Assembly: GCA_964362685.1 (NCBI GenBank)
Contig: CAYIFL010000001.1
Location: 1-29,488, forward strand
Source: an uncultured Candidatus Saccharibacteria bacterium
GTDB taxonomy: Bacteria; Patescibacteriota; Minisyncoccia; UBA6257; UBA9933
Length of the DNA: 29,488 bases
Reading direction: 5' to 3'
Part shown: piece by piece, positions 1,856-23,229 of the stretch
How the letters are laid out: every line of letters begins with the position of its first letter
Position numbering within the stretch: the first letter of the stretch is position 1
Notes under the pieces: model-generated
What the model was told of the DNA's origin: nothing
What the model saw: the letters and a program-made list of their open reading frames with translations, nothing else
Database searches by the model: none
Translations under genes and position numbers: made by a program

Positions 1856-3091
1856 TTACACAATTTTTACTTCAGGAACGGGAATAATAAATTTCACACC
1901 TTGCTCTCTTAATTCTTTTTCCTTTTCTAAAATCGCACGAGCGTAATTCCAAGCCAAAAGCAGGATATAATCCGGCGGAAATTCCTTAATTTTATCCGGA
2001 TGATGAATCGGCACTCGCATGCCCGGCGAATATAAACCTTGTTTGAATGAAGTTGTGTCAGTTATAAATTCTAAAATATCACTGCCAATTCCAAAATAAT
2101 TTAATAGCGTATTTCCCTTGGCTGGCGCGCCGTAACCTATAATTTTTTTGCCCTCTGCTTTTATTCTTATCAGCATATCCTTCAGATCTCTTTTATTTTT
2201 CTCCACTTTTTTTGCAAAATTTTCGTATGACTCCAATCGGTCGAGGCCAAGCTCTTTTTCTCTGGCTAAAAATTCGTCCACTGATTTTTCCTGCTCACGA
2301 TTTGCGCTTACATACACTCGCAGGGACTCTCCGTGGATCGGAACGAGTTTAACGTCAAAAATTTTCAAGCCCAGTTGGTTAATTAAATAATCGAGTGCGG
2401 TCAAAGAAAAATATGAGAGGTGCTCATGATATATTTGGTCAAATCCGCCATCGCCTATCAAATTGCCCACCCAATGCACTTCAAAAACAAATACGCCATC
2501 TCTGCCGATTAACATTTTTACTCCCTCAAACATATCTTTCAAATTATCTATGTGAGCAACAACATTATTGGCAACAACTACCTTAGCGCGACCATAATCC
2601 TTAAGTATCCCTTCAGCAAACTTTTGATTAAAACCAAAGGAGTCAGAAATCGCCGGTACGCCACGTTGCCTCGAAATCTCTGCCACATTTTCCGCTGGCT
2701 CAACATTTAAAACGCGGCATGTATCTCGTACAGCAGAGAGCAGAGTTCCGTCATTACCTCCAATTTCTAAGATCAAATCTTCTTTTGAGGTAACAAAGGT
2801 ATCTGCTAACTCTCTTGCCATTTTCTCAAAATGATCTGCAAGAGGCTTGCTCGCTGACGTCAAATAATGATAGTTCCGAAAAAGAACCAGGGGGCTCACC
2901 ACGTCCAAAAGTTGAAGCAGTCCGCAGTTGTTGCAAAAATAAACAATGAGAGGAAATTTTTCCTCCGGCGCATCCAACTCTTCCTTTTTTAGATACGCAT
3001 TCGCCGGCGGCATTTCTCCTAAATCTAAGATTTTTATGAAATCAGGTTGGCCGCAAATCCGGCACGCGTTTTTGTGGATACAATCATTCAT
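1856..3091 (-). CDS. NDP-hexose C-methyltransferase (TylC3/TcaB9/NovU-like)
   Basis: CRICG...LDLGEMPPAN...CNNCGLLQL Zn domain, LEIGGNDG, ANNVVAHI, QIYHEHLSYFS, HGESLR, GYGAPAKGNTLLNY, ILLLAWNY: the full three-domain signature of sugar C-methyltransferases. Confidence 0.92.
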   Translation of the reverse strand: MNDCIHKNACRICGQPDFIKILDLGEMPPANAYLKKEELDAPEEKFPLIVYFCNNCGLLQLLDVVSPLVLFRNYHYLTSASKPLADHFEKMARELADTFVTSKEDLILEIGGNDGTLLSAVRDTCRVLNVEPAENVAEISRQRGVPAISDSFGFNQKFAEGILKDYGRAKVVVANNVVAHIDNLKDMFEGVKMLIGRDGVFVFEVHWVGNLIGDGGFDQIYHEHLSYFSLTALDYLINQLGLKIFDVKLVPIHGESLRVYVSANREQEKSVDEFLAREKELGLDRLESYENFAKKVEKNKRDLKDMLIRIKAEGKKIIGYGAPAKGNTLLNYFGIGSDILEFITDTTSFKQGLYSPGMRVPIHHPDKIKEFPPDYILLLAWNYARAILEKEKELREQGVKFIIPVPEVKIV

Positions 3092-3108
3092 AATGCCAAA
3101 GTAATGAC

Positions 3109-4005
3109 TTAGTGCTCTTTCTTTTGTTCTGCCCCGGGCTGATTCACTAAATAGGGATAGGATTCTTTAGTTGCATCGCGGTCCAGGGAAAGAAACGCAT
3201 AATATAAAATTCCACGTGTTTCCATTAAAGCATACTCTGTTTTTCCACCCTCTGGGGTTGATATTGGCAATAATCTTATTTTTGTTCCCTCTGGAAAGGG
3301 TCTATATCTATTAATCATTCGTACTATCCTAGCCAATTGCGGCGCATGAGAAATGATAGCTAATTCATCATGCTCTATATCAAAATTTTCCGGCAAACGA
3401 ACAGACTTCACCTGATCAACACTTTTATCTATACCTTCTCCAATCACCATCACCTTTTCTTGTGGTATGATTATTCCCTCTCGCGTTAAGACATCATGGA
3501 CCACCTCATTTTCATCAGGTCTACCATTATAGATAATGTACGGACCCGACTCTAGGATCGACCTCTTTGTTAATTCTTTTCGTTTTTGAAGAGAACTCAA
3601 TCCTCCTTGATCAAAAACGTCTCCGCTCCGAGCCTCTGTCACCCTTCGCGCAATCCGTGCCGCATAATTTAAACGAGCCCTGTCCATACCTCGCGCCCAC
3701 GGAAAGTTTTTATAACGATCTTCCTTGACTGGATCATCATACGTGCCCGGACCAGAAAGAACCCATATGGCTTCAATTTTTTTAGCAACATCATCTGATA
3801 GGTGAAACTCGCGGTAATCGCGCTCGGCAATTTCTTCCAAAAGATCGATTTCACGAAGCACCTCGTCAATTAATTGTTTTATTTCTTCTGGCGGAAATCG
3901 TTTAAATGCTTCATGCTCTTCTACTGCACTTTCGTACACAGCATCAATGCCAAGGCGAGCCTCTTTTTTTATATTGCGTTTCTCTGATTGATTTTCTATG
4001 GACAT
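3109..4005 (-). CDS. Hypothetical protein, divergent DUF218/YdcF-like
   Basis: 298 aa. AIWVLSG...DRARLNYAARI...YIIYNG...DKSVDQV...LAIISHAPQLARIVR follows the motif order of DUF218, with substitutions. Acidic N-terminal extension. Confidence 0.5.
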   Translation of the reverse strand: MSIENQSEKRNIKKEARLGIDAVYESAVEEHEAFKRFPPEEIKQLIDEVLREIDLLEEIAERDYREFHLSDDVAKKIEAIWVLSGPGTYDDPVKEDRYKNFPWARGMDRARLNYAARIARRVTEARSGDVFDQGGLSSLQKRKELTKRSILESGPYIIYNGRPDENEVVHDVLTREGIIIPQEKVMVIGEGIDKSVDQVKSVRLPENFDIEHDELAIISHAPQLARIVRMINRYRPFPEGTKIRLLPISTPEGGKTEYALMETRGILYYAFLSLDRDATKESYPYLVNQPGAEQKKEH

Positions 4006-4021
4006 ACTATATTTTTATTTC

Positions 4022-4879
4022 CTACTTTTGCAGAAACACATCAGCTTCTCGCCACTCACTTTCCAAATATTCCTTCAGCGCCTCCTGCCATGGCCGCATC
4101 GGATATTTTAGAGAAAGCAAACTTTCGTCTCCGCCTGTCGCATCTGGATTAAAAAAGCTGATGTCTACGGGAATCGCATTAGCATTTGATCCCAGCGTTT
4201 TAATTATTTCCTCTGCCATCTCGAGTCGAGAAGCGCTACCGCTATTTACAATATGAAACACCCCAACTGCGCCTTTTCCCAGCAGTGCCTTTATCGCTCC
4301 GACTACATCCTTGCCAAATGTTGGTGAGCCGATTTGATCCGAAGCCGCTCGAATTTCTTTTGTCCCCTCGCGCGAAAGCTGATCAATAATTTTTCTCACG
4401 AATTTTTTATCCCGAGTGGGGCCGCCGCCGAAAATCCAGCTTGTCAGTATAATAAAGTAATCATCAGATATTCCTCTGACTGCAAGCTCCCCCATATGTT
4501 TTGATTTGCCGTAGACACTTTTTGCAAAAGGGGTATCGCTCTCTCTGAAGGGCCCGTTATCTAATCTGTCGAACACCGCATTCGTTGAAACATACACCAT
4601 TTTCGCGCCGGCTTGTTTCGCCGCGCATGCCACATTATACGTTCCAATTGAATTTATAAAATAGGCGCGTTCTGGATTTTCCTCGCACGCTCCCATATCT
4701 GTTTCTGCGGCTAAGTGAAGTATAGCTCGCGGATTAGTATCCGCGACAAACTTTTGAACCGCATCAAAATCCGTTATATCCAAAATCTCTTTGTTTGTCT
4801 TTATACCGAAATCAATATAGGAACCAACCATGCCGCCGGATCCGGTAATAAGAATCTTGTCTAAATTGATTTCTGCCAT
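4022..4879 (-). CDS. rfbD: dTDP-4-dehydrorhamnose reductase-like SDR
   Basis: ILITGSGGMVGS (GxxGxxG), LHLAAETD, YVSTNAVFD, YGKSK (YxxxK), DQIGSPT, PWQEAL. Start placed at MAEINLDK (4879). Confidence 0.85.
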   Translation of the reverse strand: MAEINLDKILITGSGGMVGSYIDFGIKTNKEILDITDFDAVQKFVADTNPRAILHLAAETDMGACEENPERAYFINSIGTYNVACAAKQAGAKMVYVSTNAVFDRLDNGPFRESDTPFAKSVYGKSKHMGELAVRGISDDYFIILTSWIFGGGPTRDKKFVRKIIDQLSREGTKEIRAASDQIGSPTFGKDVVGAIKALLGKGAVGVFHIVNSGSASRLEMAEEIIKTLGSNANAIPVDISFFNPDATGGDESLLSLKYPMRPWQEALKEYLESEWREADVFLQK

Positions 4880-8513: not shown

Positions 8514-9251
8514 TCACTTGTCGAAGGTTACGAGCCCTTGCGCTTCTTTATATCTCTCAGGCGTGCCAATATCAAGAAAATCATCCTCCATTACAAAGCC
8601 ATGGCAATACTCACCTAGTACCGAGGGGAAAAAATGGTATTCAATCGAAAAAGAATCTTCCTGCGGCATATGAGCAAACGCATCTTTCTTCATTACATAT
8701 ACACCTGCATTTACCAGTCCTTCCTCGTTCACGCCATCTTTTTCCCGAAAACTTTGAATCCATCCTTCTGTATCAATCTCTACTCTACCGTATGCTGACG
8801 CATCAGATTTTTTTCCCAGAAGAATAGAAACAAGGGCGTCTTTTTCACGATGAGCTCCATACAAATCACGAAAAGGAGGCGCCATAACCTGATCTCCGTT
8901 CATCACAAAAAAATGATCCGTGCGTATCAAATCTTTTGCTCGCTTAACTGCGCCGCCGGTTCCTAAAGGAATATCTTCTTCTGAAAAAACGATTTCAACA
9001 TTCTCTCTACCAAGAGGTTTGTAATCTCGAAAGTGATCTATCACCTGATTCTTGAGGTAGCCCACGCTTAAAATCATGCGGCGGAATCCATGGCGCGCAA
9101 GCATATCGATTGCGCGTTCAAGGAACGGCCTGCCGCCGACCTCAGCCATCACCTTTGGCCGATCAGAAACAACAGACTGCAGACGGGTTCCTTTCCCGCC
9201 CGCAAGAATCAATACATCGCTTGTATGAAAATCATCAAAAGGGTTCGACAT
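8514..9251 (-). CDS. hddC: D-glycero-alpha-D-manno-heptose 1-phosphate guanylyltransferase-like nucleotidyltransferase
   Basis: ILAGGKGTRLQSVVSDRPKVMAEVGGRPFL, LGTGGA, VMNGD, NAGVY, FLDIGTPERY; adjacent to hddA. Start placed at MSNPF (9251). Confidence 0.82.
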   Translation of the reverse strand: MSNPFDDFHTSDVLILAGGKGTRLQSVVSDRPKVMAEVGGRPFLERAIDMLARHGFRRMILSVGYLKNQVIDHFRDYKPLGRENVEIVFSEEDIPLGTGGAVKRAKDLIRTDHFFVMNGDQVMAPPFRDLYGAHREKDALVSILLGKKSDASAYGRVEIDTEGWIQSFREKDGVNEEGLVNAGVYVMKKDAFAHMPQEDSFSIEYHFFPSVLGEYCHGFVMEDDFLDIGTPERYKEAQGLVTFDK

Positions 9252-9261
9252 ATAGCGGGGA

Positions 9262-10275
9262 CTATGCCTGAATATTTTTTTCTGGCGCATAGTAAACCAC
9301 CTGGCTCCCCAAGTGATCAAATAAAATCGGGACATAAAGGAGATGTTTTAAGCGCTCCTTCACCGCCTTTTGTTTTTCAGGCGCAACAAAGAAAACCATA
9401 AAGCCGCCTGCACCAGCACCCAAGAGTTTGCCGCCCCAGGCACCGGCGCCTCTCGCCGCTTCGTATATCTCATCTATGGCAGAATTGCTGATTTGCGATC
9501 CTAAACTTTTCTTGATCTGCCAGGCTTCGTGGAGCAGACGCCCAAAATCCTCGAATGCGCCTTTATGCACCACCTCTATTGCCTCTTCAACCATATCCCG
9601 CATAATCCGGAGCGCTGATCCCTTTTCATTATCTGCCGTACTCTTCACTTGCTCTGCAGCGATGTCAGAGGCAGTGCGCGTGAGTCCGGTAAAAAACATC
9701 ATAAGATGGCTCTGGAACGCCTCCATGCGCTTGGTCGTAAGAAGCACCGGATGCACCGCAATAAGATGTGGTCCGCCAAATTCGATTTTATTTAGTCCCC
9801 CAAATGCAGCTGCGGCTTGATCCTGCGACCCGACATTCTCTTTGAGGCGTTCCTGCTCAATATGGATTGCATCGAGCATTAAGCGCCGCTTTGTAACCAT
9901 GCGTCCATCCAGGGCATGAAGCGCATGAAGCAAACCCACCGTAAAGGACGAACTTGATCCCAAACCAGAACGCGCCGGCAGATCTCCCTGATGGTGTATT
10001 TCGATGCCTTTTTGCACATTCAAGAATTTCAGAACCTCCCGCACTGCCGGATGCTCTATTTCTTCCTGTTCCTTCACAAGCTCTATTTTAGACCATACCA
10101 CACGATTTTTATGCTCGAAAAAAGGCGGCAAGTGCCTGCAGGTAATATAACAATACTTATTAATAGTCGCTGAAAAAACCGCACCATTCCGATTTTGGTT
10201 TTGATTATACCATGCGGGATAATCAGTGCCGCCGCCGAAAAAAGAAATACGAAAAGGGGTTCGAGTAATAACCAT
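9262..10275 (-). CDS. hddA: D-glycero-alpha-D-manno-heptose 7-phosphate kinase (GHMP kinase)
   Basis: TRTPFRISFFGGGTDYP, DLPARSGLGSSSSF, GSQDQAAAAFGG, GGKLLGAGAGGF. Confidence 0.9.
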   Translation of the reverse strand: MVITRTPFRISFFGGGTDYPAWYNQNQNRNGAVFSATINKYCYITCRHLPPFFEHKNRVVWSKIELVKEQEEIEHPAVREVLKFLNVQKGIEIHHQGDLPARSGLGSSSSFTVGLLHALHALDGRMVTKRRLMLDAIHIEQERLKENVGSQDQAAAAFGGLNKIEFGGPHLIAVHPVLLTTKRMEAFQSHLMMFFTGLTRTASDIAAEQVKSTADNEKGSALRIMRDMVEEAIEVVHKGAFEDFGRLLHEAWQIKKSLGSQISNSAIDEIYEAARGAGAWGGKLLGAGAGGFMVFFVAPEKQKAVKERLKHLLYVPILFDHLGSQVVYYAPEKNIQA

Positions 10276-12107
10276 TAGTGGATATCGGGCATCGCCGGAT
10301 GTTCCCAGTCGGAAACCGGCTCGACGCCTATCATATTTTCTCTGAATTCTTCACGCGGAAGATACGGGTACATATCTTCAATAGGCGTCTTCCATCCGAA
10401 GATGCGCGGATTATACACATGCTCTTCATAACAATTTACCACACATACAACCGGACCTTCCATAGCCAAGACTTTCCGTATACCTTCCCGGACTCCAGCG
10501 TTATTCCCGATCTGAACCGTGGGCATTCCATACGCCTGGCATATTTTTATAAAATCCGGCGGATTGTATCCCTTTGGCCCGCATGCTTCCATTCTGCCTT
10601 GAAAATTAGTCTTTTGATAAGACTTAGTAATGCCGTAGATGCGATTATCGATAATAAAGGTTTTAAATCCGAGATTATAATTCAGCACCGTCTGAATCTC
10701 CTGGATATTCATATTGAATCCGCCGTCGCCGATCGTCGCAACCACATTGTGTTTTTTATCAGAGCCGAGCCAGGCGCCCATAGCGCCAGCAAAAGAAAAT
10801 CCCATGGGCGAATTGCCATTATTCGTGATGTTCCGCTGGCCGCGCTTTGTTTCAAAAGAATGATTTGAGGCAACGATATTGCCGCCGCAATCACCTACCA
10901 AAATATCATTTGGTCCCATCTCTTCGGAAAGAATCCGAAAGAAATAATATGGATGCACATTAGACCTATCCAAGCTGGTGTACTCCGGCAAAACCGGATC
11001 ATATTTTTCTTTCCAGTGCATCACTTTTTTAGTCCATGCGGAAATATCCGGCAAGGACACATTCGCTATTTTATCAAAAAGACGCCGCAGAAAGATTTTC
11101 GCGTCGCAAAATACGTTTTCATCAAAAGGAATCTGCTGGAGTTTTTTCTGGAGGAGTGACGGATCAACGTCAATTACCCATTTTTTGGCGCCGCGCGCGA
11201 ATGTTTGCAAATTGCCGCCGGTGATTCTCCCGGAGATACGGCTGCCTACCGCCAAAAGCAAATCAGCATTTTGAAGGCCGAAATTACGCCCCCTTCCTCC
11301 ATAGGTGCCTACCCTGCCGCCATACCACTGCCAATCCGAGGTTACTGCATCGAGCGCATTCCACGTTGGAAATACCGGCATCTTCAATCGCTCGCCCACT
11401 GCCCATAACTCCTCCATTGCGCCCGCGATCCGCACGCCGCCGCCAATGAGCATCACCGGACGCTTGGCACTCATTAAATCCTGGAGCAATGAATCGATTT
11501 TTCTATCGATATATAAAAAATTATACGTGGCCCTCGCGGCTTCCGCATCAAATCCCGTGAGCTTATCTGGCTCGATTAATTCCTTGGCAATATTTAAGGG
11601 GAGATCAATAAGCACTGGCCCTGGCCTGCCTTCGCGCGCATGAAAAAGCGCCTTCTGCAACTCATATTTAATACTTGCGGCATCTTGAATCATCACCGCG
11701 TACTTAGTGATTGGCTTTACAATACTCACAATATCGGTTTCCTGAAAGCCAACCTGCCGCACTTCAGGATCAGGCCGCAAAAATTGCGAATTGACTTGCC
11801 CCGTAATAAAAAGGCACGGCACAGAGTCATAATAGCAATTGCCGATAGGAGTGACCATATTCATGCCTCCGGGACCGCTTGTTGCAATAGTTACGCCGGG
11901 CTTGCCGCTTATTTTTGCGTAACACTCCGCGGCAAAACCCCCTCCCTGCTCGTGCATGACCGCGACATAGCGCGTTTTATCGGTTTTCGTAAACGCGTCA
12001 ATAAGATCGCCGATCGCGGAACCATACACCACAAACATATCCGTAATGCCCAAATCAGCCAGATACTGAATTATAAAATCTGCCACGCGCATTTTTCCAG
12101 AAGACAT
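10275..12107 (-). CDS. ThDP-dependent acetolactate-synthase-like enzyme (YerE-like sugar C-C ligase candidate)
   Basis: Catalytic HEQ, ATSGPG, FAD-domain ADLLLAVGSR, ThDP motif GDGGFNMNIQE...DNRIYG. TAATG stop/start coupling to hddA. Start placed at MSSGKMRVADF (12107). Confidence 0.88.
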   Translation of the reverse strand: MSSGKMRVADFIIQYLADLGITDMFVVYGSAIGDLIDAFTKTDKTRYVAVMHEQGGGFAAECYAKISGKPGVTIATSGPGGMNMVTPIGNCYYDSVPCLFITGQVNSQFLRPDPEVRQVGFQETDIVSIVKPITKYAVMIQDAASIKYELQKALFHAREGRPGPVLIDLPLNIAKELIEPDKLTGFDAEAARATYNFLYIDRKIDSLLQDLMSAKRPVMLIGGGVRIAGAMEELWAVGERLKMPVFPTWNALDAVTSDWQWYGGRVGTYGGRGRNFGLQNADLLLAVGSRISGRITGGNLQTFARGAKKWVIDVDPSLLQKKLQQIPFDENVFCDAKIFLRRLFDKIANVSLPDISAWTKKVMHWKEKYDPVLPEYTSLDRSNVHPYYFFRILSEEMGPNDILVGDCGGNIVASNHSFETKRGQRNITNNGNSPMGFSFAGAMGAWLGSDKKHNVVATIGDGGFNMNIQEIQTVLNYNLGFKTFIIDNRIYGITKSYQKTNFQGRMEACGPKGYNPPDFIKICQAYGMPTVQIGNNAGVREGIRKVLAMEGPVVCVVNCYEEHVYNPRIFGWKTPIEDMYPYLPREEFRENMIGVEPVSDWEHPAMPDIH

Positions 12108-12116
12108 AGCAACTAT

Positions 12117-12145
12117 AATGTATGCCCGATTGAGTAGTGTGTCAA
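12117..12145 (-). promoter_or_regulatory. sigma70-type promoter of ThDP-hddA-hddC-GT4-rml operon
   Basis: TTGACA-17 nt-TACATT, ending 9 nt before ATG 12107. Confidence 0.65.
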
Positions 12146-12160
12146 CAGGGAAGGATTTGT

Positions 12161-12742
12161 TTAGTTCTTCTTGGTAACTTTTACCTCGAGTCCTAAATGC
12201 GGCAATGCGCGCAAAAGCGTAAGGCACGCGTCCCACTGGTCTGATTCGCCTTTAAGCATATAGGCAATCCATTCATCAAGCGGCATTTCTAAAAGCTCCA
12301 TTTGCTCGCTTGGGTCTAGTTTCGGCTCTCCTACTTTTTTACAACCGGTTGCAAGAAAACTATAAAACTTGGTGGTTGAATTTCTTGAGTTAATAAATCC
12401 TGATCCTAAACTAATCACTTCTTTTGGGTCATAGCCGGTTTCTTCTTTTAATTCCCGCTTGATAATTTCTTCGGGCAATTCACCTTTGAAGCTGCCTTGG
12501 CCCCCGGGCGTTTCAATCATAATCTGGCCTGATCCCTGTTTGTATTGGCGAATTAAAATAACTTTGCCGTCTTCGGTAATGGGCAAAACCGCTGACCACG
12601 ACGGCTGTTCGTTAAAATAGAAGTCGGTTTCCTTGCCGGTGTGATCCCTGAATCGTTGTTTATCTAAACGCTTGCCGTATCCTTCGGCTAGTGTTTCCGG
12701 CTTCCCAATTTTTTCCCAGGGGACAATGCTCATATCGTCCAT
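12161..12742 (-). CDS. Nudix hydrolase A (ADP-ribose/NDP-sugar pyrophosphatase-like)
   Basis: VILIRQYK...ETPGG and Nudix box GQGSFKGELPEEIIKRELKEETGY. The true start may be the Met at 12733. Confidence 0.88.
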   Translation of the reverse strand: MDDMSIVPWEKIGKPETLAEGYGKRLDKQRFRDHTGKETDFYFNEQPSWSAVLPITEDGKVILIRQYKQGSGQIMIETPGGQGSFKGELPEEIIKRELKEETGYDPKEVISLGSGFINSRNSTTKFYSFLATGCKKVGEPKLDPSEQMELLEMPLDEWIAYMLKGESDQWDACLTLLRALPHLGLEVKVTKKN

Positions 12743-14069: not shown

Positions 14070-15710
14070 TTATTGGTGCCGCGCGCTCATCGGCACAAGC
14101 CGTGCTTGTTCGCTCTCCGACAGCTCCCAGAAGGTCCGGCCGCCTAGAAGATCGCGCTTGAGCGATTTCTGCAGGTGGTCAATCCAAAGATCGATATTGC
14201 GGATAGCCACCGGACCGAGCTTTGGATCCTTGAGTAACCGTTCTCGGTACTCCGGCCGCTTGTAGTAAGCGGCGTGTGCCCAATCGCGGAACGCGATGAT
14301 CTGCTCAGTAGTCAAAGCGTCGCCATCGTAGTGTGGCTCGCTCTCTTCCAAGTATTGGGCATGCCCCGGCCAGCCTGGACCACCAAGCCGCTCAGGCAAT
14401 GGATATCCCTTTGTCTTGGCTTCTCGGTAGAGTTCTGACCCAGGAAGTGCTTGCGCGCAGTAGAAATTGCCGTAGGTGCCGTTTAGATCGCAGGCAAGCT
14501 TAAAGGTCGCTTCAATGGACTCCACGGTCTCGCCGGGAAGCCCGAAGATATAGTTCAATCCGCCTTCAATACCCGCCTCATGCATTCGCCGAACCACATC
14601 GTAAATGGTGTCTTCGCTAAACTTCTTGGCTTGACGAGACCGAACGGTGCTGTTCGCCGCCTCGATACCAAGCCCAAGCCAGCGGAAACCAGCGCTGCGG
14701 AGTAGATCGAGGTACTGCGGTTTGCAGGTGTCAATCCGGAAATAGCACCAGAAGTTAAAAATATCCCGAGCTTCCGGAAAAAGCTGGGTGAGAAGCTTGG
14801 CGATTTCCAGTGGGTGCGAACCCAACCCGAACATTTCGTCTGGGATCTTAAAAAACCTGACCCCATACGTTCTGTAGAGGTACAGAACCTCTTCCACGAA
14901 GAGCTTCGGCATAAGGTGCCGAAAGCTGTTCACGCCTGGCTTCAGTGCTCCGATCTGTTGCAATACCTGCTCGCCTTCGCGGTAGGGCGGCTGAATATTA
15001 CAGAAGTTACAGTGGAACGGACACCCCTCTGCTGAATAGGGATTGGCGTACGGCTCTGGAAGAATCTGCCCTTGTTCGTCAGTCACCCGATAGAACCGAT
15101 GCCAATGATGCGGCCGATACTTCCGCGGATCCATATACTTCCAGCCAGGAAGCGCTGGCTCTTGATTGAGGTCGATGAGCGGCGCTTCAGGACCATGCCC
15201 GATGCCGCTGTTATCCCGGTACCACAAGGACCGCACCTTATGGATATCTACCGGTCGTCCCCCTGCCTTCGTTGCCGCAAGGAGATCCTCCACGGTAATG
15301 GGCCCCTCGCCACCGCAGACGAAATCCACGGCTGGCTCGGTCTCGAGAGTATAAGCAGGAATCGCCGAGGGGTGTGTACCCGTGAGTATGATTGGGATTT
15401 CAGGCGACATCGCCTTGATCGCTTCGGCGAACTCCCGCGCAGATGGCATAGTCTGCGTGCTTGCCGAAGGGTTGTACCCGTAAACCGGCAAAACCACGAG
15501 GCGGGGATGTGCCGCACACACTTCTTCTGCCATCCGTTGTGGCGTCCAGTCCAGGACATTCGCATCAAAAAGATCCATACTCCACTTGCGGCGTTCGCCG
15601 TAAGCGAGCATGAAACGCGCCTTAGCAGGCGGCTCAATTGCATCTGGCACCCCGCCTCTAATATCAAGTACGTTCATCGGAATAACGAAAAGCACGTCCA
15701 ATCGGCTCAT
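14070..15710 (-). CDS. Cobalamin-binding radical SAM protein (class B methyltransferase-like)
   Basis: N-terminal B12-binding-like region (ILTGTHPS...DFVCGGEG), CPFHCNFC (CxxxCxxC), IPDEMF, GIEAAN, YIFGLPGET. SD AAGGAG 5 nt upstream. Confidence 0.9.
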   Translation of the reverse strand: MSRLDVLFVIPMNVLDIRGGVPDAIEPPAKARFMLAYGERRKWSMDLFDANVLDWTPQRMAEEVCAAHPRLVVLPVYGYNPSASTQTMPSAREFAEAIKAMSPEIPIILTGTHPSAIPAYTLETEPAVDFVCGGEGPITVEDLLAATKAGGRPVDIHKVRSLWYRDNSGIGHGPEAPLIDLNQEPALPGWKYMDPRKYRPHHWHRFYRVTDEQGQILPEPYANPYSAEGCPFHCNFCNIQPPYREGEQVLQQIGALKPGVNSFRHLMPKLFVEEVLYLYRTYGVRFFKIPDEMFGLGSHPLEIAKLLTQLFPEARDIFNFWCYFRIDTCKPQYLDLLRSAGFRWLGLGIEAANSTVRSRQAKKFSEDTIYDVVRRMHEAGIEGGLNYIFGLPGETVESIEATFKLACDLNGTYGNFYCAQALPGSELYREAKTKGYPLPERLGGPGWPGHAQYLEESEPHYDGDALTTEQIIAFRDWAHAAYYKRPEYRERLLKDPKLGPVAIRNIDLWIDHLQKSLKRDLLGGRTFWELSESEQARLVPMSARHQ

Positions 15711-17804: not shown

Positions 17805-18593
17805 TTAAATCATTTGTTGAATCTCATCTGCTATGTCTTTATTCCTTGCAAGTATAGCGGGGATTCTCTTCTGTTTAAAATCAATCCGCCCACCATCTGT
17901 TTGAAAAACCGCGCATCCAGCCTCCTCCGCAATTAACACTGCGGCGCCTAAATCAAAAGGAGACGCGCCGCCATGCAAATAAAAACCTATTTTACCCTGA
18001 ATGAGCAAGAGCGTGCTTCCAGTAAAGGAGTGAATCTCTAAAATCATACAACCCAACGAACGAACTTTTTCGGCTATTTCTGGCTTTGTAATAGAATCTA
18101 CGCTTACAAATAACTCGTCCGCAATGCGGCCGCCTTGGGGCACTACAATTTTTTCTCCGTTTATAAAAGCACCCTTGCCGCGGCTCGCATGCGCAAAAAT
18201 ATCATTCGCAGGAAAGTAGAGTGCGCCGAACTCCGGAATGCCGTTTTTAATAAGTCCGACTGAAATCGAGAATAAATCCATTCCGGCTGCAAAACGATGG
18301 GTTGCGTCTATTGGATCGAAAAGCCACTCGTATCCTGAAGAAGATTGCACTTCCGCGCCTTCTTCTCCACGAATGCCGTGCTCGGGCCAATGAGTCCTCA
18401 CGCATTCAGTTAAAAATTTCTCTGAAAATAGATCTGCTTTAGTTACTATTTCCTTTACAGCTGATTTTTTGATAGTGGGATCTAATCTTCCCTCCTCGCG
18501 CATTGTAAGTATCTCTCTGCCTATGTTAGGCAGAAGATCCTTAAAAATTTCAAGGGCTTGTTCATGGTTAAAATTTTTTCTAGATTCATCCAT
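17805..18593 (-). CDS. Inositol monophosphatase-family phosphatase A
   Basis: EIVTKAD, GEE, WLFDPIDAT, PFDLGAA...EEAG; colinear with IMPase B over its whole length. Confidence 0.88.
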   Translation of the reverse strand: MDESRKNFNHEQALEIFKDLLPNIGREILTMREEGRLDPTIKKSAVKEIVTKADLFSEKFLTECVRTHWPEHGIRGEEGAEVQSSSGYEWLFDPIDATHRFAAGMDLFSISVGLIKNGIPEFGALYFPANDIFAHASRGKGAFINGEKIVVPQGGRIADELFVSVDSITKPEIAEKVRSLGCMILEIHSFTGSTLLLIQGKIGFYLHGGASPFDLGAAVLIAEEAGCAVFQTDGGRIDFKQKRIPAILARNKDIADEIQQMI

Positions 18594-18595
18594 AG

Positions 18596-19780
18596 TTACA
18601 GTTTTAAAACTGCTTGCTTTATGCTTTTCAATGCTTTCCCAATATTCTCAATCGAGTTCGCATACGAGAATCTTAAATACCCTTCGCCGTAACTGCCGAA
18701 TGCAATGCCGGGCAAAACCGCAACTCCTGCTTTTTCCAGAATATAGTCAGCCATTTTTTTTGAGGTTATGCCAAATGATTTAATATTCGGAAAAACATAA
18801 AAAGCCCCTTTGGGCACTTGGCACGTTATTCCGGGAATTTCATTCAAACCCTTCACGATAAAATTCCGTCTTTTTTCAAATTCTTTTACCATACTTGAAA
18901 CCTCCTTTTGAGAACCATTTAGGGCCTCGATGCCTGCCCATTGCACAAAAGTTGTGGTACACGCTATAGAATTTACAAGCAGATTTTCTATGTGAGGCAT
19001 AAACCGCTCGGGCATTATAAAATATCCCAGGCGCCAACCAGTCATCGCATAGGTTTTTGAAAATCCATCAATCAAAATAGTCCGCTCTTTTACCCCTGGC
19101 AAACTATAAAAACTATGAAAGGGCAAATTATCGTAAATAATTCTTGAATAAATTTCATCACTTATAACCCAGGCATTTGTTTTTTTGATAAGCTTCGCGA
19201 TCATGGCTAAATCCTCTTTGGGCAATACCCCGCCCGTAGGATTACTCGGAGAATTTAAAATAATTAACTTTGTTTTTTTCGTTATTGCCTTTTTAAATGC
19301 ATACAAATCAAAACTAAAATGATTTTCTTCTAAAATCGGCACAGGCTTTGGCGTGCATCCCAAAAAATCAACCATATTTTCATACACCGGAAATCCTGGA
19401 TTAGGAAAAATCACCTCATCACCTTTTTCTAAAATCGCGGTCATGGCAAGATAGATCGCAGTCTTCGCGCTTGGCGTAACCACAACTTCTCCCGGACGCA
19501 CCGAAACGCCGCGTGTTTCTGTAATGTACTCTGCAATCGCTTGCCGCAGCTCTTTTATGCCTAAGGTTGGCGTATATTTGGTTTTTCCTTGCTCGATTGC
19601 CTTAATGCCGCTTTCGCGAATGTGCTCTGGCGTTTGAAAATCCGGCTCGCCGATTTCCAAATGGATTATGTGTTTGCCTTTCCGCTCGAGTTCCTGCGCT
19701 TTTGCTAAAACCGCATACGCTGCCTCGCCTTTCATAACGGCTGTACTGCGCGACAAGCCCGGAAAATGTTTTTTTACCAT
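18596..19780 (-). CDS. PLP-dependent aminotransferase class I/II (aspartate aminotransferase-like)
   Basis: LEIGEPDF, NSPSNPTG, SDEIY, GFSKTYAMTGWRLGY (Schiff-base Lys), YLRFSYA. Confidence 0.93.
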   Translation of the reverse strand: MVKKHFPGLSRSTAVMKGEAAYAVLAKAQELERKGKHIIHLEIGEPDFQTPEHIRESGIKAIEQGKTKYTPTLGIKELRQAIAEYITETRGVSVRPGEVVVTPSAKTAIYLAMTAILEKGDEVIFPNPGFPVYENMVDFLGCTPKPVPILEENHFSFDLYAFKKAITKKTKLIILNSPSNPTGGVLPKEDLAMIAKLIKKTNAWVISDEIYSRIIYDNLPFHSFYSLPGVKERTILIDGFSKTYAMTGWRLGYFIMPERFMPHIENLLVNSIACTTTFVQWAGIEALNGSQKEVSSMVKEFEKRRNFIVKGLNEIPGITCQVPKGAFYVFPNIKSFGITSKKMADYILEKAGVAVLPGIAFGSYGEGYLRFSYANSIENIGKALKSIKQAVLKL

Positions 19781-19786
19781 AACGTA

Positions 19787-19815
19787 ATACTTGCATCAAA
19801 CGGCTCTTGTGTCAA
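19787..19815 (-). promoter_or_regulatory. Putative promoter of aminotransferase-IMPase A operon
   Basis: TTGACA-17 nt-AAGTAT, preceded by TGc (extended -10); ATG 6 nt later. The -35 overlaps the upstream terminator U-tract. Confidence 0.45.
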
Positions 19816-19850
19816 AAAAAGAAGGGCCTGCCACGATACGTGACAAGCCC
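19814..19850 (-). terminator. Intrinsic terminator downstream of Zn-ribbon gene
   Basis: gggcttgtcacg-tat-cgtggcaggccc 12-bp stem followed by ttc-T7. Confidence 0.8.
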
Positions 19851-19878
19851 CATGGCGTCGAAGAGGTATTTTCCCCTT

Positions 19879-20208
19879 TTAGGGCGTTATCCATGCCTCT
19901 TCAAGGGATATCCCTCTTTCGATTTCCACCTCGTAATCAGCGAGAAGACGCACCCTGTGAGCGCGCTTGAAAAACGGCTTTAAGTTCCTGTGGGTATTGA
20001 ATCCATACTTACCAAAGATGTCCTCCACCCAAAAAGATCTCCCGCAACTTGCGCATCCCACATGTTTTACGAGATAGAAATGCACGTTCATCGGAAAGAA
20101 TCCCGGCATCTGTATAACAGTAGGAATACCGCCGCCACAGTCCGGGCACTTCCCTTCGATATAGATTAAGGAAAATTCCACGAGAGCCTTGGTCTTTAAA
20201 CATTCCAT
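19879..20208 (-). CDS. Hypothetical small Zn-ribbon protein
   Basis: CPDC...CASC pairs; GAGGTG 5 nt upstream of ATG 20208; own promoter and terminator. Confidence 0.7.
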   Translation of the reverse strand: MECLKTKALVEFSLIYIEGKCPDCGGGIPTVIQMPGFFPMNVHFYLVKHVGCASCGRSFWVEDIFGKYGFNTHRNLKPFFKRAHRVRLLADYEVEIERGISLEEAWITP

Positions 20209-20275
20209 CAAAGCACCTCTCTTTTTTACTACGAGTCAGTTGCGCCCTATGCACTTTTCAAGTTTCAAGATTTAT

Positions 20276-20304
20276 AAGATACCATAAGACCTGCAAAATA
20301 ACAA
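20276..20304 (-). promoter_or_regulatory. Putative promoter of Zn-ribbon gene
   Basis: TTGTTA-17 nt-TATCTT, with TGG before the -10. Confidence 0.4.
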
Positions 20305-20336
20305 TTGATCAATAATTAAAACCAACCACATAGCAG

Positions 20337-21272
20337 TTATATATTCGCAAACCCGTTCCGTTTTATAACTTTATACCCCTTGATGAGTTCGGCAATACCT
20401 TCCTGCATCGAAACTTGCGGCATAAAACCGGTTTTCTCGATTTTTTCATTCGAAACAATGTAGTCGCGCTTGTCCGGATCCTCACCAATTGAAGCTTCCA
20501 CAAAATGGAAATCAGAAACTTGTTTTTTTATTTCTTCGCAGAGTTCCCGCTTACTTAAATTCGCATCCGAAAGCCCGACATTATACGCTTCATCTTTCAT
20601 CTGTTCAAAATTATTCATTGCATGCATAAACGCCCGCGCCACATCCCGGATATGGATATAATTCCTCTTAAAGTCAGCTTCGAATAAAACGACAAAGCGA
20701 TCATTTACCGCACGGTACACAAAATCATTAACCAAAAGATCCAGGCGCATCCGAGGACTTACGCCAAACACGGTTGCAAGCCGAAACACAACCGCATTGC
20801 CTGCGGACAAAATGGTTTTCTCTGCTTCAACTTTTAAACGGCCATAGAGCGAAATCGGATTCAAAGGACTTTTTTCATCGCAGTACTGGCCTTTTTCACC
20901 AACACCGTACCCACTATTCGTATTCGGATATAAAATCCGCTGATTGTCTTTTTTTAAAGCTAAAATGGTTTTTATGGCATCAAGGTTAACGCTTGCTGCG
21001 GCTAGAGGGTCCCTATCGCAGGCTGGCGCACCCACAATCGCGGCCAAGGGAATAATATAATCAACGCCGTCCAGATTTTGCGCGATTGTTTTCACACCCC
21101 GCACATCCCCCCGCACAATCGTCAGAGTCTTATGGTGGCAGAGATCCAAAAGCGGCGCCTGATTGTACATAAAGTTATCAAGCGCAATAACCTCATGTCC
21201 CATGTTCAGCAATTCGCCGGTCAAAACCGAACCAATATAACCTGCGGCGCCGGTAATAAGAATTTTCGACAT
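20337..21272 (-). CDS. NAD-dependent SDR, Cj1427-like GDP-D-glycero-D-manno-heptose C4-dehydrogenase
   Basis: GAAGYIGS, IIPLAAIVGAP, YPNTNSGYG.GEK, YGRLK, FRLATVFGVSPRMRLDLLVNDF.YRA, IGEDPDKRDY.VSN, FAN. These match the Campylobacter jejuni Cj1427 sequence as I recall it; not verified by alignment. Confidence 0.8.
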   Translation of the reverse strand: MSKILITGAAGYIGSVLTGELLNMGHEVIALDNFMYNQAPLLDLCHHKTLTIVRGDVRGVKTIAQNLDGVDYIIPLAAIVGAPACDRDPLAAASVNLDAIKTILALKKDNQRILYPNTNSGYGVGEKGQYCDEKSPLNPISLYGRLKVEAEKTILSAGNAVVFRLATVFGVSPRMRLDLLVNDFVYRAVNDRFVVLFEADFKRNYIHIRDVARAFMHAMNNFEQMKDEAYNVGLSDANLSKRELCEEIKKQVSDFHFVEASIGEDPDKRDYIVSNEKIEKTGFMPQVSMQEGIAELIKGYKVIKRNGFANI

Positions 21273-21326
21273 AAATAAAAAATTAAAGATAATAAATAAT
21301 AAATTGTGTTTATTATTTTTTATATA

Positions 21327-22505
21327 TTATTTATCATATCCTACGCTATCTAACACGATATTTGAAATAAATGCAATATCCTCTTCTTTAAGCGAAGGGT
21401 TATTGGGCAAAAACAAGCCCGCATGATGAATTTGGTCAGCTACTGGCGCTGAAAACTTGCCGTACCGCTCAAACCAAAAGGGATGGAGTCCCAGATTGCC
21501 CGCGGAGAAAATCCGGGTTTCAATGCCGTTATCCTCAAGCGCGCGCACGATCTTTCTTCTCTCTTCAATATCATGAGCTACCATGCCGAAATGAATTGAA
21601 CAAATCACTGAATCCGGATCCGCTTGTTGATACCTAAATCGGTCGCCCAAAAGTTTTTTATAGAGAAAATGGTTTTCATGCCTGCGCTTCACAAGCCAAT
21701 CCATCTTATCAATCTGGCGAATGCCTAAAAATGCGCCGAGATCTGTTGAACGAAAATTAAATCCCGGCTCATAGAACACAAAGGGCGAATGAAAATCATC
21801 AATCTCGTATTTTCGTATGAGCTCTTCTTGTGCGGCTGTATCCAGATCCTTGCCCCAGCCATGGCTCCGCGTCATTAAGAGAAGATCGTTAAAAATTTTA
21901 TCATCCGTAGAAACCGCGCCGCCTTCAATGGTAGAAATCTGGTGGCCAAAGTAAAAGGAAAAACTGCTCATATCGCCATAGGTACCTACCTTTCTGCCGC
22001 GGTACAACGATCCCATTGCCGCGCACGCGTCTTCCAAAAGAAAAAAACCGTATTTTTCTTTGAGCGCCATCATCTCCTCCATTTTATGCGGCACGCCCAA
22101 CACTTGCACCAAGACCACGGTAGACGGCTCATGCTGTTTCAATAATTCTTCTAGATGGCCGAGGTCTAAACCAAACGTATCCGGATCCGCCTCGCACATA
22201 ATGGGCTCGAAACCGAATTGGATTGCGGGCGCAACAGTCGTTGCCCAACCCACGCTTGGCACAATCACCTTTTTATTTTTGAGACGACGAGATAAAAGAA
22301 GGACGTAATACATCAGGAGATTCGCAGATGATCCGGAATTCACGAATACCGAATGCTGTCTCCCGAGCCAATCACTCCATTTTTGCTCAAATTCGGACGT
22401 AAGGCGATGCTTCGTAAGCCGCGGGTTGGTTTTAAGCCAATCAATCAACGCGTTAATATCGCCCTGATCAATTGTATCTTCCGCCAAATAATATTTTATA
22501 TCCAT
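21327..22505 (-). CDS. DegT/DnrJ/EryC1/StrS-fold PLP enzyme, ColD-like NDP-4-keto-sugar 3-dehydratase
   Basis: VNSGSSANLL, LLEDACAAMG, SFSFYFGHQISTIEGG (His at the usual Schiff-base Lys), RSHGW, GFNFR. Confidence 0.8.
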   Translation of the reverse strand: MDIKYYLAEDTIDQGDINALIDWLKTNPRLTKHRLTSEFEQKWSDWLGRQHSVFVNSGSSANLLMYYVLLLSRRLKNKKVIVPSVGWATTVAPAIQFGFEPIMCEADPDTFGLDLGHLEELLKQHEPSTVVLVQVLGVPHKMEEMMALKEKYGFFLLEDACAAMGSLYRGRKVGTYGDMSSFSFYFGHQISTIEGGAVSTDDKIFNDLLLMTRSHGWGKDLDTAAQEELIRKYEIDDFHSPFVFYEPGFNFRSTDLGAFLGIRQIDKMDWLVKRRHENHFLYKKLLGDRFRYQQADPDSVICSIHFGMVAHDIEERRKIVRALEDNGIETRIFSAGNLGLHPFWFERYGKFSAPVADQIHHAGLFLPNNPSLKEEDIAFISNIVLDSVGYDK

Positions 22506-22518
22506 ATAATTTGGGGTT

Positions 22519-23229
22519 TTACGTAAAATATTCTCTAAAGATATTAAATAACATCAAAAGTCCGTTGTATGACTTTCTCCATTTTGTGGGATGCGCTCTG
22601 CTTTCTTTCCCGCCGCCAATCCGATCCGGCTCATCGCCCGGAATCTCTGCCACCTTGAGCTTTGCTTTGGCGCATCGCACCGAGAGTAAAACATCATAAA
22701 GCCCCACATTGTATACATTAAGCAACTCGGCGGTATTTTTTGAAAAACCAAGTTCAGAGAGTAGGGTTTTACGAAACGCGCGATACATCACGAGTGCATC
22801 AGTATACTCGGCGCTAAACAGAAAATTGATGATTTTATTAAAGAGGTAATTAGCCCAGGCGCTTGCCGCATCGTCATCCTCGCTTTTGGCTCCGCTCTTG
22901 TACCGAGAAGCTATAACCATATCATATCCCTCTTCTATCTTTTGAATCAAGACAGATATCAACTCCGGAATCGAATTGCCGTCAGGGCTAAAAGGAATAA
23001 TGACATCGCCTGTTGCGGCTTCAAACCCTTCCCACCAGGCGCCCGTCGTTCCGGGCAAGGTTTGCACGCGCGCGTCAAAACCGTTTTCTCGAAGATATTC
23101 CAATGTCCCGTCAGTCGAACCCGCGTCTATAAAAATAATCTCATCCACCCACTCTTTTTTAATTTTGGGCATAACCACCTTGAGCCCTTCAATTTCGTTA
23201 AAAGTCGGTATAAACAAGGTCGTTTTCAT
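22519..23229 (-). CDS. Glycosyltransferase family 2 (DPM1-like)
   Basis: IPTFNE, IDAGSTDGT, FSPDGN in place of DxD, MVIASRY, EIPGDEPDRIGG. Confidence 0.85.
   Translation of the reverse strand: MKTTLFIPTFNEIEGLKVVMPKIKKEWVDEIIFIDAGSTDGTLEYLRENGFDARVQTLPGTTGAWWEGFEAATGDVIIPFSPDGNSIPELISVLIQKIEEGYDMVIASRYKSGAKSEDDDAASAWANYLFNKIINFLFSAEYTDALVMYRAFRKTLLSELGFSKNTAELLNVYNVGLYDVLLSVRCAKAKLKVAEIPGDEPDRIGGGKESRAHPTKWRKSYNGLLMLFNIFREYFT

Follow-up and report, generated by a model that had tools for sequence, protein, structure and literature searches.

A ColD-like dehydratase and a Cj1427-like dehydrogenase form a conserved, sometimes fused pair in a Candidatus Saccharibacteria sugar locus

The window, a 29,488-nucleotide stretch of DNA from an uncultured Candidatus Saccharibacteria bacterium (contig CAYIFL010000001.1) analysed at its full length, holds the following features.

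22519-23229, minus strand: GT2 glycosyltransferase (DPM1/AglJ-like; PF00535, E 9e-19)
21327-22505, minus strand: ColD-type PLP/PMP-dependent NDP-4-keto-sugar 3-dehydratase, 392 aa (PF01041, E 5e-67; PDB matches)
20337-21272, minus strand: Cj1427-type NDP-heptose C4-dehydrogenase, an extended SDR, 311 aa (PDB 6vo6/6vo8; motifs)
19879-20211, minus strand: small Cys-rich (Zn-ribbon-like) ORF, 109/110 aa (ORF and translation)
19823-19851, minus strand: intrinsic terminator-like hairpin (13-bp stem with 8 G-C pairs, T run)
18596-19780, minus strand: class I/II aminotransferase, subgroup I (aspartate/aromatic type), 394 aa (PF00155, E 9e-72)
17805-18593, minus strand: IMPase-family phosphatase (PF00459, E 4e-36)
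14070-15710, minus strand: B12-binding radical SAM enzyme (Pfam; synteny in L017-L025 and L206)
10275-12236, minus strand: YerE/acetolactate-synthase-like ThDP enzyme, likely a C-branching carboligase (Pfam TPP_enzyme N/M/C; PDB 8rph)
9262-10275, minus strand: HddA-like GHMP kinase (best NCBIfam match HddA, E 2e-44, below cut-off)
8514-9335, minus strand: HddC-like nucleotidyltransferase (best NCBIfam match HddC, E 9e-46, below cut-off)

The GT2 gene opens a minus-strand unit in which the ColD-like gene follows 13 nt downstream and the SDR a further 54 nt on; GT2 orthologues (51-67% identity) also adjoin the pair in relatives L017, L018, L021 and L022. Dehydratase, dehydrogenase and aminotransferase genes are all intact, on the minus strand and at the coordinates of the initial annotation, which had described the first two as adjacent and co-oriented and the third as intact, and Pfam and PDB matches bear out all three identities. 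The annotation also placed the aminotransferase about 0.55 kb downstream, which is right as to distance (556 nt from the SDR), but the interval is not empty: it is occupied by the Cys-rich ORF and a strong intrinsic terminator (19851-19823), whose 3' edge stands ~40 nt ahead of the aminotransferase ATG and which separates the transcription unit of the pair from the aminotransferase. Pfam and NCBIfam searches with the Cys-rich ORF gave no match; a copy with 45% identity occupies the equivalent position in metagenome locus L125.

The ColD-like protein belongs to the DegT family, with ColD/WbdK as its closest solved relative (2gms, E 5e-46); the ColD entries 2gms/3b8x/3gr9 (E ~1e-45) outrank the Fe-S enzyme E1 (3bcx, E 5e-35). 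In the alignment the histidine within FGHQIS falls on ColD His188 (the sole position altered in the H188N entry 3b8x), which replaces the Schiff-base lysine and is invariant in 27/27 subfamily members. Cysteines occur only at positions 104, 161 and 302, and a CxC motif and Fe-S cysteines are absent.

Cj1427 (6vo6/6vo8) is the best solved match of the SDR, with E 7e-115 across residues 2-310 and ~56% identity as counted on the printed alignment, and the next solved match drops to E 7e-20. A TGAAGYIG motif, Y143 and K147 are invariant across 27 homologues. For NADH trapping and 2-oxoglutarate (2-OG) use in Cj1427 we know of no defining residue; the overall identity is the sole ground for transferring either property. 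The steadiest neighbours of the SDR family, in relatives and metagenome loci alike, are HddA-like and HddC-like genes, whose products presumably supply a GDP-heptose substrate; counting against this reading, both assignments rest on NCBIfam matches below cut-off, and counting towards a heptose are NTP-transferase-SDR fusion proteins. In relatives (L017-L025, L206) the radical SAM gene directly follows the SDR and is thus part of the conserved core.

SDR orthologues (61-76% identity) were found in 9 of 100 relatives, and in all nine the locus also contains the ColD orthologue; a contig end cuts through a tenth ColD copy. Three gene orders occur: ColD-SDR, SDR-ColD (L025, L188) and a separation of a few kb (L024, L144, L174, L178). 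In-frame ColD-SDR fusions of 713-747 aa make up at least four protein clusters (P0001-P0004; mutual identity 74-100%), with two linker types and from independent assemblies. The pairing of dehydratase and dehydrogenase is genuine and conserved, at times to the point of fusion. Linkage whatever the gene order, together with the fusions, shows that selection keeps the two together, which substrate hand-over alone could explain.

The cofactor chemistries invoked in the initial annotation are both published for Campylobacter homologues (PMC10680097). Cj1427 holds non-exchangeable NADH that is reoxidized by alpha-ketoglutarate (2-OG), giving L-2-hydroxyglutarate, and the C. jejuni HS:5 C3-dehydratase depends on PLP and on L-glutamate, from which it makes alpha-ketoglutarate and ammonia; mixing the two yields GDP-D-glycero-3-deoxy-4-keto-heptose, showing that the product of Cj1427 is a substrate for a ColD-type enzyme (PMC10680097). 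This 3-deoxy-4-keto-heptose, there called novel, has so far been made only in vitro, and the two-enzyme synthesis was run with alpha-ketoglutarate in excess, not in catalytic amounts, which counts against a loop (PMC10680097).

On balance, we think it probable that the pair catalyses consecutive NDP-heptose steps, most likely from GDP-heptose, with a 2-OG loop if the chemistry of the homologues is kept. The SDR would oxidize C4 of the heptose and the ColD-type enzyme would then take the 3-hydroxyl off the 4-keto sugar, leaving a 3-deoxy-4-keto-heptose with its 6-OH retained, on which the conserved radical SAM enzyme and the ThDP carboligase may act in later steps. The dehydratase would draw one 2-oxoglutarate out of glutamate per turnover, possibly in a PLP-to-PMP half-reaction ahead of the sugar, and the dehydrogenase would spend one per turnover in reoxidizing its trapped NADH; with one made and one used, 2-oxoglutarate would be catalytic. 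The predicted net reaction is GDP-heptose + Glu -> GDP-3-deoxy-4-keto-heptose + L-2-hydroxyglutarate + NH3, in which the loop would close without an extra part and each sugar would cost one glutamate. The earlier proposal that the by-product of one step is the oxidant for the preceding one stands in that the stoichiometry closes and the genes are linked and fused; for the loop itself, and with it the substrate, trapped NADH, 2-OG use and coupling in vivo, we infer from homologues.

The 515-kb assembly of the window's own genome (80% complete) shows no glutamate dehydrogenase (GDH), citrate synthase, isocitrate dehydrogenase (IDH) or GOGAT, consistent with the annotation's surmise that the host probably lacks a TCA cycle, and no class III or IV aminotransferase or SerC. 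Nor did it yield a member of the DAO/LhgO family, and no enzyme was found in this genome to return 2-hydroxyglutarate to 2-OG. Relative G017, whose genome is 100% complete, has the ColD-like gene as its sole DegT member and one class III aminotransferase; SerC, GDH, IDH, and class IV and true class I/II aminotransferases were not found in it. Against the loop stand further DegT genes in the window's own genome (contigs C28 and C56), which could also release 2-OG, and GDH in pair-bearing relatives G010 and G067.

Both observations favour a plainer reading, possible in our judgement but not the probable one, in which the two enzymes act consecutively and nothing more: the oxidant of the SDR would come from the cell at large, be it 2-OG made by GDH or other transaminases, a different 2-oxo acid or exchangeable NAD+, and the 2-OG from the dehydratase would be incidental. 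Most Cj1427-like loci in the wider metagenome sample point the same way, a ColD orthologue being present in 20 of 80; those of at least 7 kb (n=49) comprise 13 with a ColD orthologue and 36 without, of which 16 have another DegT gene and 20 none. The dehydrogenase is therefore not generally dependent on ColD for its oxidant, and since those without ColD need one from elsewhere, the loop cannot explain how the family works in tiny genomes. The fusions and order-independent linkage speak against purely incidental 2-OG, subject to the same caveat of substrate hand-over, as does the finding that, of the families searched, none that could be a further source of 2-OG is present in the window's own genome or in G017, bar the latter's class III enzyme.

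The aminotransferase, matched by PF00155 over its full length and with K242 as the lysine of its SKT motif, has Pyrococcus and Thermus aspartate/aromatic aminotransferases as closest solved relatives (PDB 1dju/1gd9, E ~5e-93) and scores under all NCBIfam equivalog cut-offs. The IMPase start codon lies 2 nt past its stop codon; the IMPase gene, to which it is translationally coupled, is thus its actual operon partner. The annotation had raised the question whether such aminotransferases accompany Cj1427/ColD pairs, which as a rule they do not: pair-bearing relatives have one orthologue in nine (G019) and a ~37% paralogue in G033, with no match at E<=1e-40 in the other 7/9; 1 of 80 metagenomic loci has one (L125, of the window's own lineage); none of its 80 closest relatives in other phyla lies beside a pair; and within the family, pair-bearing genomes show no enrichment in class I/II aminotransferases (2/6 against 19/44). 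The aminotransferase does not belong to the module that the conserved pair forms.

What it does instead can be read in two ways, each tentative. It may serve the YerE-like ThDP carboligase, turning an amino acid into a 2-oxo acid to be decarboxylated and attached to a 4-keto sugar, its contact with the Glu/2-OG pool being no more than that of any transaminase of this kind. Five of six orthologues in the phylum (in G008, G078, G019, G235 and the window, but not G451) are in sugar loci with an ALS/YerE-like ThDP gene no more than 6.5 kb away, and in G008 and G078 they stand directly downstream of it (gaps of 39 and 20 nt); because the genomes are related, these five do not count as independent cases. 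PDB entry 8rph is matched by the window's ThDP enzyme (E 1e-90), the usual 2-oxo acid routes are absent from these genomes, and YerE-like enzymes take 2-oxo acid donors from C2 to C8 (PMC12247030). Against such service, G061 has the closest ThDP orthologue (63% identity) and no such aminotransferase, and 6.4 kb separates the two genes in the window, where the aminotransferase is coupled to the IMPase gene. Equally tentatively, this may be an ordinary housekeeping aspartate/aromatic enzyme, horizontally acquired and in the glycan island by chance: it is 46-56% identical to enzymes without sugar-gene neighbours from many phyla (Acidobacteriota, Chloroflexota, Cyanobacteria, Bathyarchaeia), and orthologues are rare in its own phylum (2/400 sampled genomes), yet its placement in sugar loci recurs in 5/6 phylum members that have it. 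The role first proposed, a dedicated third component balancing the Glu/2-OG pool, is very improbable, its distribution having largely refuted it. In its favour, the genome has no other strong class I/II aminotransferase, the gene shares strand and sugar island with the pair, near-identical L125 keeps the arrangement (SDR 94%, aminotransferase 88%) and the G019 orthologue is within 4 kb of the pair. Against it, a terminator and a separate small gene intervene, 79/80 metagenome loci have no orthologue, the orthologues of G008, G078 and G235 have no Cj1427-like gene in their loci, and a stoichiometrically closed loop needs no balancer, while 2-hydroxyglutarate is beyond an aminotransferase's reach.

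Compared with known systems, the dehydratase shares its DegT fold with ColD/WbdK, the E. coli O55:H7 GDP-4-keto-6-deoxy-D-mannose 3-dehydratase (2GMS, 3B8X; at 390 aa of similar length), and resembles both this enzyme and the C. jejuni HS:5 C3-dehydratase in having His188 for the Schiff-base lysine and no Fe-S cluster motif; these two homologues consume glutamate to give 2-OG and ammonia. Its score against ColD, 160 bits, marks it as a distant member of the subfamily, and known ColD-type enzymes act downstream of a 4,6-dehydratase on 6-deoxy substrates, whereas here the upstream enzyme is a C4-dehydrogenase, which is why the product would retain its 6-OH. Cj1427 and this SDR are full-length homologues with the same SDR motifs and HddA/HddC-type neighbours. 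In C. jejuni, Cj1427 supplies epimerases and C4-reductases, and its serotypes (HS:2, 3, 4, 23/36, 33) are distinct from those with the C3-dehydratase (HS:5, 11, 45, 60) (PMC10680097); the SDR described here is instead paired, and in some cases fused, with a 3-dehydratase.

The logic of the loop is not new in kind: Type II phosphoglycerate dehydrogenase (PHGDH; SerA/Ser33) has tightly bound NADH, uses alpha-ketoglutarate and is sustained by the alpha-ketoglutarate that phosphoserine aminotransferase (PSAT) frees from glutamate (PMC13434204), an NADH-holding dehydrogenase with a glutamate-dependent PLP enzyme as proposed here. Folds and substrates are unrelated; PHGDH/PSAT makes D-2-hydroxyglutarate, usually recycled by a dehydrogenase, where the L form is expected here, and PSAT passes the amino group on, where the PLP enzyme here would deaminate glutamate and release NH3. 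The yersiniose pathway (E1/E3 3-deoxygenation, then YerE at C4) likewise hands a 3-deoxy-4-keto NDP-sugar to a ThDP carboligase, and the present gene context includes a YerE-like or transketolase-like enzyme; that pathway uses a CDP-linked 6-deoxyhexose and an Fe-S E1 with its reductase, in place of what would here be a heptose, probably GDP-linked, and a glutamate-using enzyme of the ColD type.

The sugar-nucleotide/glycan island considered here fills nearly the entire window, which is a complete 29.5-kb contig of a 515-kb genome (65 contigs, 80% complete). Homologues from named organisms assign the contig to the Patescibacteria. Its ColD-like, Cj1427-like and aminotransferase genes are intact and lie on the minus strand at the coordinates reported in the initial annotation, whose interpretation as a whole is partly supported by our analysis:

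21327–22505, minus strand: DegT-family ColD-type PLP/PMP sugar 3-dehydratase (best solved relatives ColD/WbdK, E about 5e-46)
20337–21272, minus strand: Cj1427-type NDP-heptose C4-dehydrogenase of the extended SDR family (matches 6vo6 end to end, E 7e-115)
19879–20211, minus strand: small Cys-rich ORF with its own ribosome-binding site
18596–19780, minus strand: class I/II aminotransferase, subgroup I aspartate/aromatic type (PF00155 positions 2–361 of 361)

The dehydratase has a DegT fold in which the internal-aldimine lysine is replaced by the equivalent of ColD His188, a residue invariant in 27 of 27 subfamily members. In the PDB search the histidine of its FGHQIS motif aligns with His188, and is the sole position at which the H188N mutant entry (3b8x) differs. 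ColD differs from E1/RfbH, an enzyme dependent on a reductase and not on glutamate, in lacking a [2Fe-2S] cysteine motif. That motif is absent from the ColD-like sequence, whose only cysteines are Cys104, Cys161 and Cys302, with no CxC, so this is not an Fe–S enzyme of the E1 type. E1/RfbH-type chemistry (cluster plus reductase partner) was also disfavoured by the PDB ranking, which places ColD above E1; the RfbH model scores 207 bits against a cut-off of 423. The ColD-like identity originally proposed thus stands and, by analogy with the Campylobacter jejuni HS:5 enzyme (PMC10680097), the gene product would regenerate PMP from glutamate, releasing 2-oxoglutarate (2-OG) and ammonia. Several ColD-like proteins of 830–885 aa (P0068, P0085, P0086, P0089, P0092, P0093, P0095, P0096 and others) carry intein and LAGLIDADG endonuclease domains (PF14890, PF14528), which suggests that inteins have inserted into this dehydratase family. 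The ColD-like gene of one relative, G061, matches in two pieces (L025:2890–4048; 2890–3285 and 3314–4048), suggesting a frameshift or an assembly error.

The dehydrogenase is about 56% identical to Cj1427 (6vo6; own count on the printed alignment); no other solved SDR matches better than E 7e-20. Its N-terminal Rossmann motif (TGAAGYIG) and residues T118, N119, S120, Y143 and K147 (YGRLK) are invariant in 27 homologues. Full-length similarity clearly above that to other SDR sugar enzymes, together with the retained catalytic Tyr/Lys, upholds its assignment as Cj1427-like. Non-exchangeable NADH that is reoxidised by 2-OG in a ping-pong manner, a property for which we know of no sequence marker, is described only from the biochemistry of Cj1427 (PMC10680097) and is a prediction for the window's enzyme. 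Genes in its neighbourhood have HddA and HddC as best family matches, both below cut-off, and these HddA-like and HddC-like genes are its most constant neighbours in the loci of relatives and metagenomes.

In the window the ColD-like gene follows a GT2 gene and is separated from the SDR gene by 54 AT-rich nucleotides that hold no terminator. SDR orthologues (61–76% identity) occur in 9 of 100 relatives, and the ColD orthologue is found in the same nine; one more ColD copy, the tenth, is truncated where its contig stops. Neighbourhoods of 20 kb share a conserved core of ColD, SDR, a B12 radical SAM enzyme, the HddA-like kinase and the HddC-like nucleotidyltransferase, often with a ThDP enzyme, a GT2 and a large membrane protein nearby. 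Linkage of the pair outlasts rearrangement, the order being ColD then SDR, SDR then ColD, or the two a few kilobases apart. In the relative G079 the two form one 745-aa open frame, and a length-restricted protein search returned four ColD–SDR fusions (P0001–P0004; 713–747 aa, 74–100% mutual identity, two linker types). In-frame ColD-like/Cj1427-like fusions lie at the following positions, and are called as single genes in independent assemblies:

L023:1448–3685, minus strand: fusion
L205:5607–7748: fusion
L206:1993–4236: fusion

Flanking the fusions are split transketolase-like ThDP genes (not YerE-like), plus a radical SAM or Nudix gene. In G079 an internal start is possible, since the NCBI annotation of that contig also lists an SDR of 319 aa on its own (P0171). 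Two other kinds of fusion were seen among P0007, P0082 and P0084, one joining a ColD-like domain to transketolase pyrimidine-binding and C-terminal domains (710 aa), the other an NTP-transferase to a Cj1427-like SDR (576–588 aa); both fit a pathway from NDP-heptose through the 4-keto and 3-deoxy-4-keto sugars to a C-branched sugar. A 988-aa DegT + epimerase protein (P0006) lies on a 3.3-Mb contig assigned to the mayfly Ephemera danica, where its annotation is that of a hypothetical protein; it represents either bacterial contamination or transfer into the insect assembly.

Both half-chemistries invoked in the initial annotation are established in the literature. The NADH of Cj1427 is neither dialysed away nor displaceable, and the HS:5 C3-dehydratase requires PLP and L-glutamate, yielding α-ketoglutarate (2-OG) and ammonia (PMC10680097; Raushel laboratory, 2023, review and research). 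In Campylobacter jejuni the two belong to different serotypes; mixed together (4 mM substrate, 8 mM α-ketoglutarate, 10 mM glutamate) they gave GDP-D-glycero-3-deoxy-4-keto-heptose (m/z 616.08), and the authors termed the 3-deoxy-heptoses so made novel (PMC10680097). Our literature search for such sugars found this paper alone. Its two-enzyme synthesis demonstrates that sugar hand-over between the two enzyme types works; it could not show 2-OG recycling, because 2-OG was given in excess. In the proposed loop the dehydrogenase would convert sugar and 2-OG to 4-keto sugar and 2-hydroxyglutarate, and the dehydratase would convert 4-keto sugar and glutamate to 3-deoxy-4-keto sugar, 2-OG and NH3. 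The net result would be dehydration of the sugar at the cost of glutamate turned into 2-hydroxyglutarate and ammonia, and on paper this stoichiometry closes. We further suggest that the PLP-to-PMP half-reaction of the dehydratase, which needs no sugar and therefore could supply the first 2-OG, may prime the NADH-loaded dehydrogenase. The pair, with its possible 2-OG/glutamate coupling, thus offers a sound and testable proposal with a published analogue. We put forward more tentatively, as a reading that may well prove wrong, that the two enzymes, most of all where fused into one polypeptide, form a self-priming device for net 3,4-dehydration of NDP-heptose, in which 2-OG would be purely catalytic and glutamate the sole consumable, leaving as excreted L-2-hydroxyglutarate and ammonia.

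Searches of the window's own genome (80% complete) gave no match to glutamate dehydrogenase, citrate synthase, isocitrate dehydrogenase or glutamate synthase, so that the genome check proposed in the initial annotation favours its reading; class III and IV aminotransferases and SerC likewise gave no match there. Recycling of L-2-hydroxyglutarate was judged from a search for the DAO family, which includes L-2-hydroxyglutarate oxidase and has no match in the same 80%-complete genome. Two further DegT genes lie on its other contigs. More telling is the pair-bearing relative G017 (100% complete), in which the ColD-like gene is the only DegT member and no glutamate dehydrogenase, isocitrate dehydrogenase, real class I/II or class IV aminotransferase, or SerC was found. 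G017 has one class III aminotransferase (C4:57343–58479; L019:4071–5207, minus strand) about 1 kb beyond the HddC-like gene of the pair locus, a non-orthologous aminotransferase in a place similar to that in the window. Other pair-bearing relatives do have glutamate dehydrogenase (G010 and G067) or other class I/II aminotransferases (G033 and G011).

Distribution sets limits on what the loop can explain. A phylum-wide sample of 400 genomes added no SDR orthologue at E ≤ 1e-90, and the aminotransferase was rare (orthologues in 2 of 400), so a metagenome scan replaced phylum-level co-occurrence statistics. Among its 80 loci centred on SDR homologues (61–94% identity), 20 contain a ColD orthologue. 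Of these loci, 49 are 7 kb or longer: 13 with a ColD orthologue, 16 with another DegT gene and 20 with no DegT gene within 6 kb. Kinase, nucleotidyltransferase and radical SAM genes are more constant SDR partners than ColD in these metagenomic loci. Since ColD or DegT is absent from many of them, Cj1427-like enzymes here often work without a ColD-type supplier. Hand-over of a labile 4-keto sugar explains both the linkage and the fusions as well as the loop does. We regard the loop as something that this variant of the pathway brings about automatically. Where other sources of 2-OG are lacking it is probably useful, but the ColD and SDR genes are not linked because of it.

The aminotransferase, proposed earlier as the balancer of the glutamate/2-OG pool, has the class I/II fold over its full length, with K242 of an SKT motif as catalytic lysine. 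It falls below every curated equivalog cut-off (best NCBIfam scores 364, 358 and 352, for cut-offs of 620, 550 and 415). A histidinol-phosphate aminotransferase identity, raised by the weak HisN matches of neighbouring IMPases, was rejected, all strong matches being of the aspartate/aromatic type. The gene is intact and does lie about 0.55 kb downstream of the SDR, but the 556-nt interval is not empty, being occupied by the Cys-rich ORF and a terminator hairpin (13-bp, G-C-rich, with a T run) that stops roughly 40 nt short of the aminotransferase start codon. Downstream, 2 nt separate the aminotransferase stop codon from the start codon of an IMPase-family gene (window 18593–18598). Terminator and spacing place the aminotransferase in the next transcription unit, where it is translationally coupled to an IMPase/PfkB/Nudix cassette and not to the sugar pair. 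The Cys-rich ORF recurs at the same position in the nearest lineage (L125:1176–1496), only 45% identical, between an SDR and an aminotransferase that are 94% and 88% identical to those of the window.

Within the order, orthologues of the aminotransferase (63% identity) are confined to pair-bearing G019 and pairless G008; G078, also lacking the pair, has one at 44%. An orthologue is present in one of the nine pair-bearing relatives, seven of which show no match at E ≤ 1e-40. The expected association with the pair is not seen within the family: a class I/II aminotransferase occurs in 2 of 6 genomes that have the pair and in 19 of 44 that lack it. Only one of the 80 metagenomic SDR loci, L125 from the window's own lineage, contains the gene. 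Its best 80 relatives elsewhere (46–56% identical, many phyla) have no Cj1427-like or ColD-like gene beside them. The recurrent neighbour is instead an acetolactate-synthase (ALS)/YerE-like ThDP enzyme, directly upstream of the orthologues in G008 and G078 (gaps of 39 and 20 nt):

L040:7144–10173: ALS/YerE-like ThDP gene, then aminotransferase orthologue (G008)
L041:7199–10137: ALS/YerE-like ThDP gene, then aminotransferase orthologue (G078)

Both of these loci also hold RmlB-like and DegT-like genes and no Cj1427-like gene. Distances between the ThDP gene and the aminotransferase are 2.2–6.4 kb in the window, G019 and G235; G451 alone has no such neighbour. Given this recurrence, and the ability of YerE-like enzymes to use C2 to C8 2-oxo acids as donors (PMC12247030), the aminotransferase might make the carboligase's donor 2-oxo acid from an imported amino acid, a reasonable alternative that we nevertheless hold to be somewhat unlikely. 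We are similarly doubtful that it is a housekeeping enzyme acquired by transfer. Its service as pool balancer for the pair is highly improbable in view of the intervening terminator, the scarcity of orthologues in pair-bearing relatives and metagenomic loci, and the absence of the pair beside its 80 relatives in other phyla.

The aminotransferase result cautions that nearness in a dense glycan island is not module membership. Were the coupling true, it would explain how a Cj1427-type enzyme runs in ultra-small bacteria without evident 2-OG supply, and would point to a way in which 6-hydroxy-3-deoxy-heptoses arise in nature; in the Campylobacter literature these have come solely from mixtures of enzymes of different serotypes. 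A self-priming device would allow bacteria with neither a TCA cycle nor exchange of trapped nicotinamide to make 3-deoxy-heptoses that keep the 6-OH, a sugar class known to date from in vitro synthesis alone. The natural fusions offer ready material for testing. Among other literature consulted, the Kim/Copley PdxB paper contains nothing on 2-OG recycling, and the septacidin paper mentions Cj1427 in passing, its own oxidase being an FAD enzyme. A loop of this design has a precedent: α-ketoglutarate is used by type II phosphoglycerate dehydrogenases, whose NADH is tightly bound, and its release by phosphoserine aminotransferase keeps the dehydrogenase running, as shown experimentally and explicitly discussed (PMC13434204). 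The likeness is that 2-OG released by the second enzyme would sustain turnover of the first without an external supply, in our pair as a stoichiometry on paper. If true, this would add a second, unrelated example of a dehydrogenase whose trapped NADH is reoxidised with 2-OG from the enzyme that follows, serine synthesis being the sole described case that we found. Naturally paired or fused, a Cj1427-type dehydrogenase and a ColD-type dehydratase make up a novel variation on known systems.
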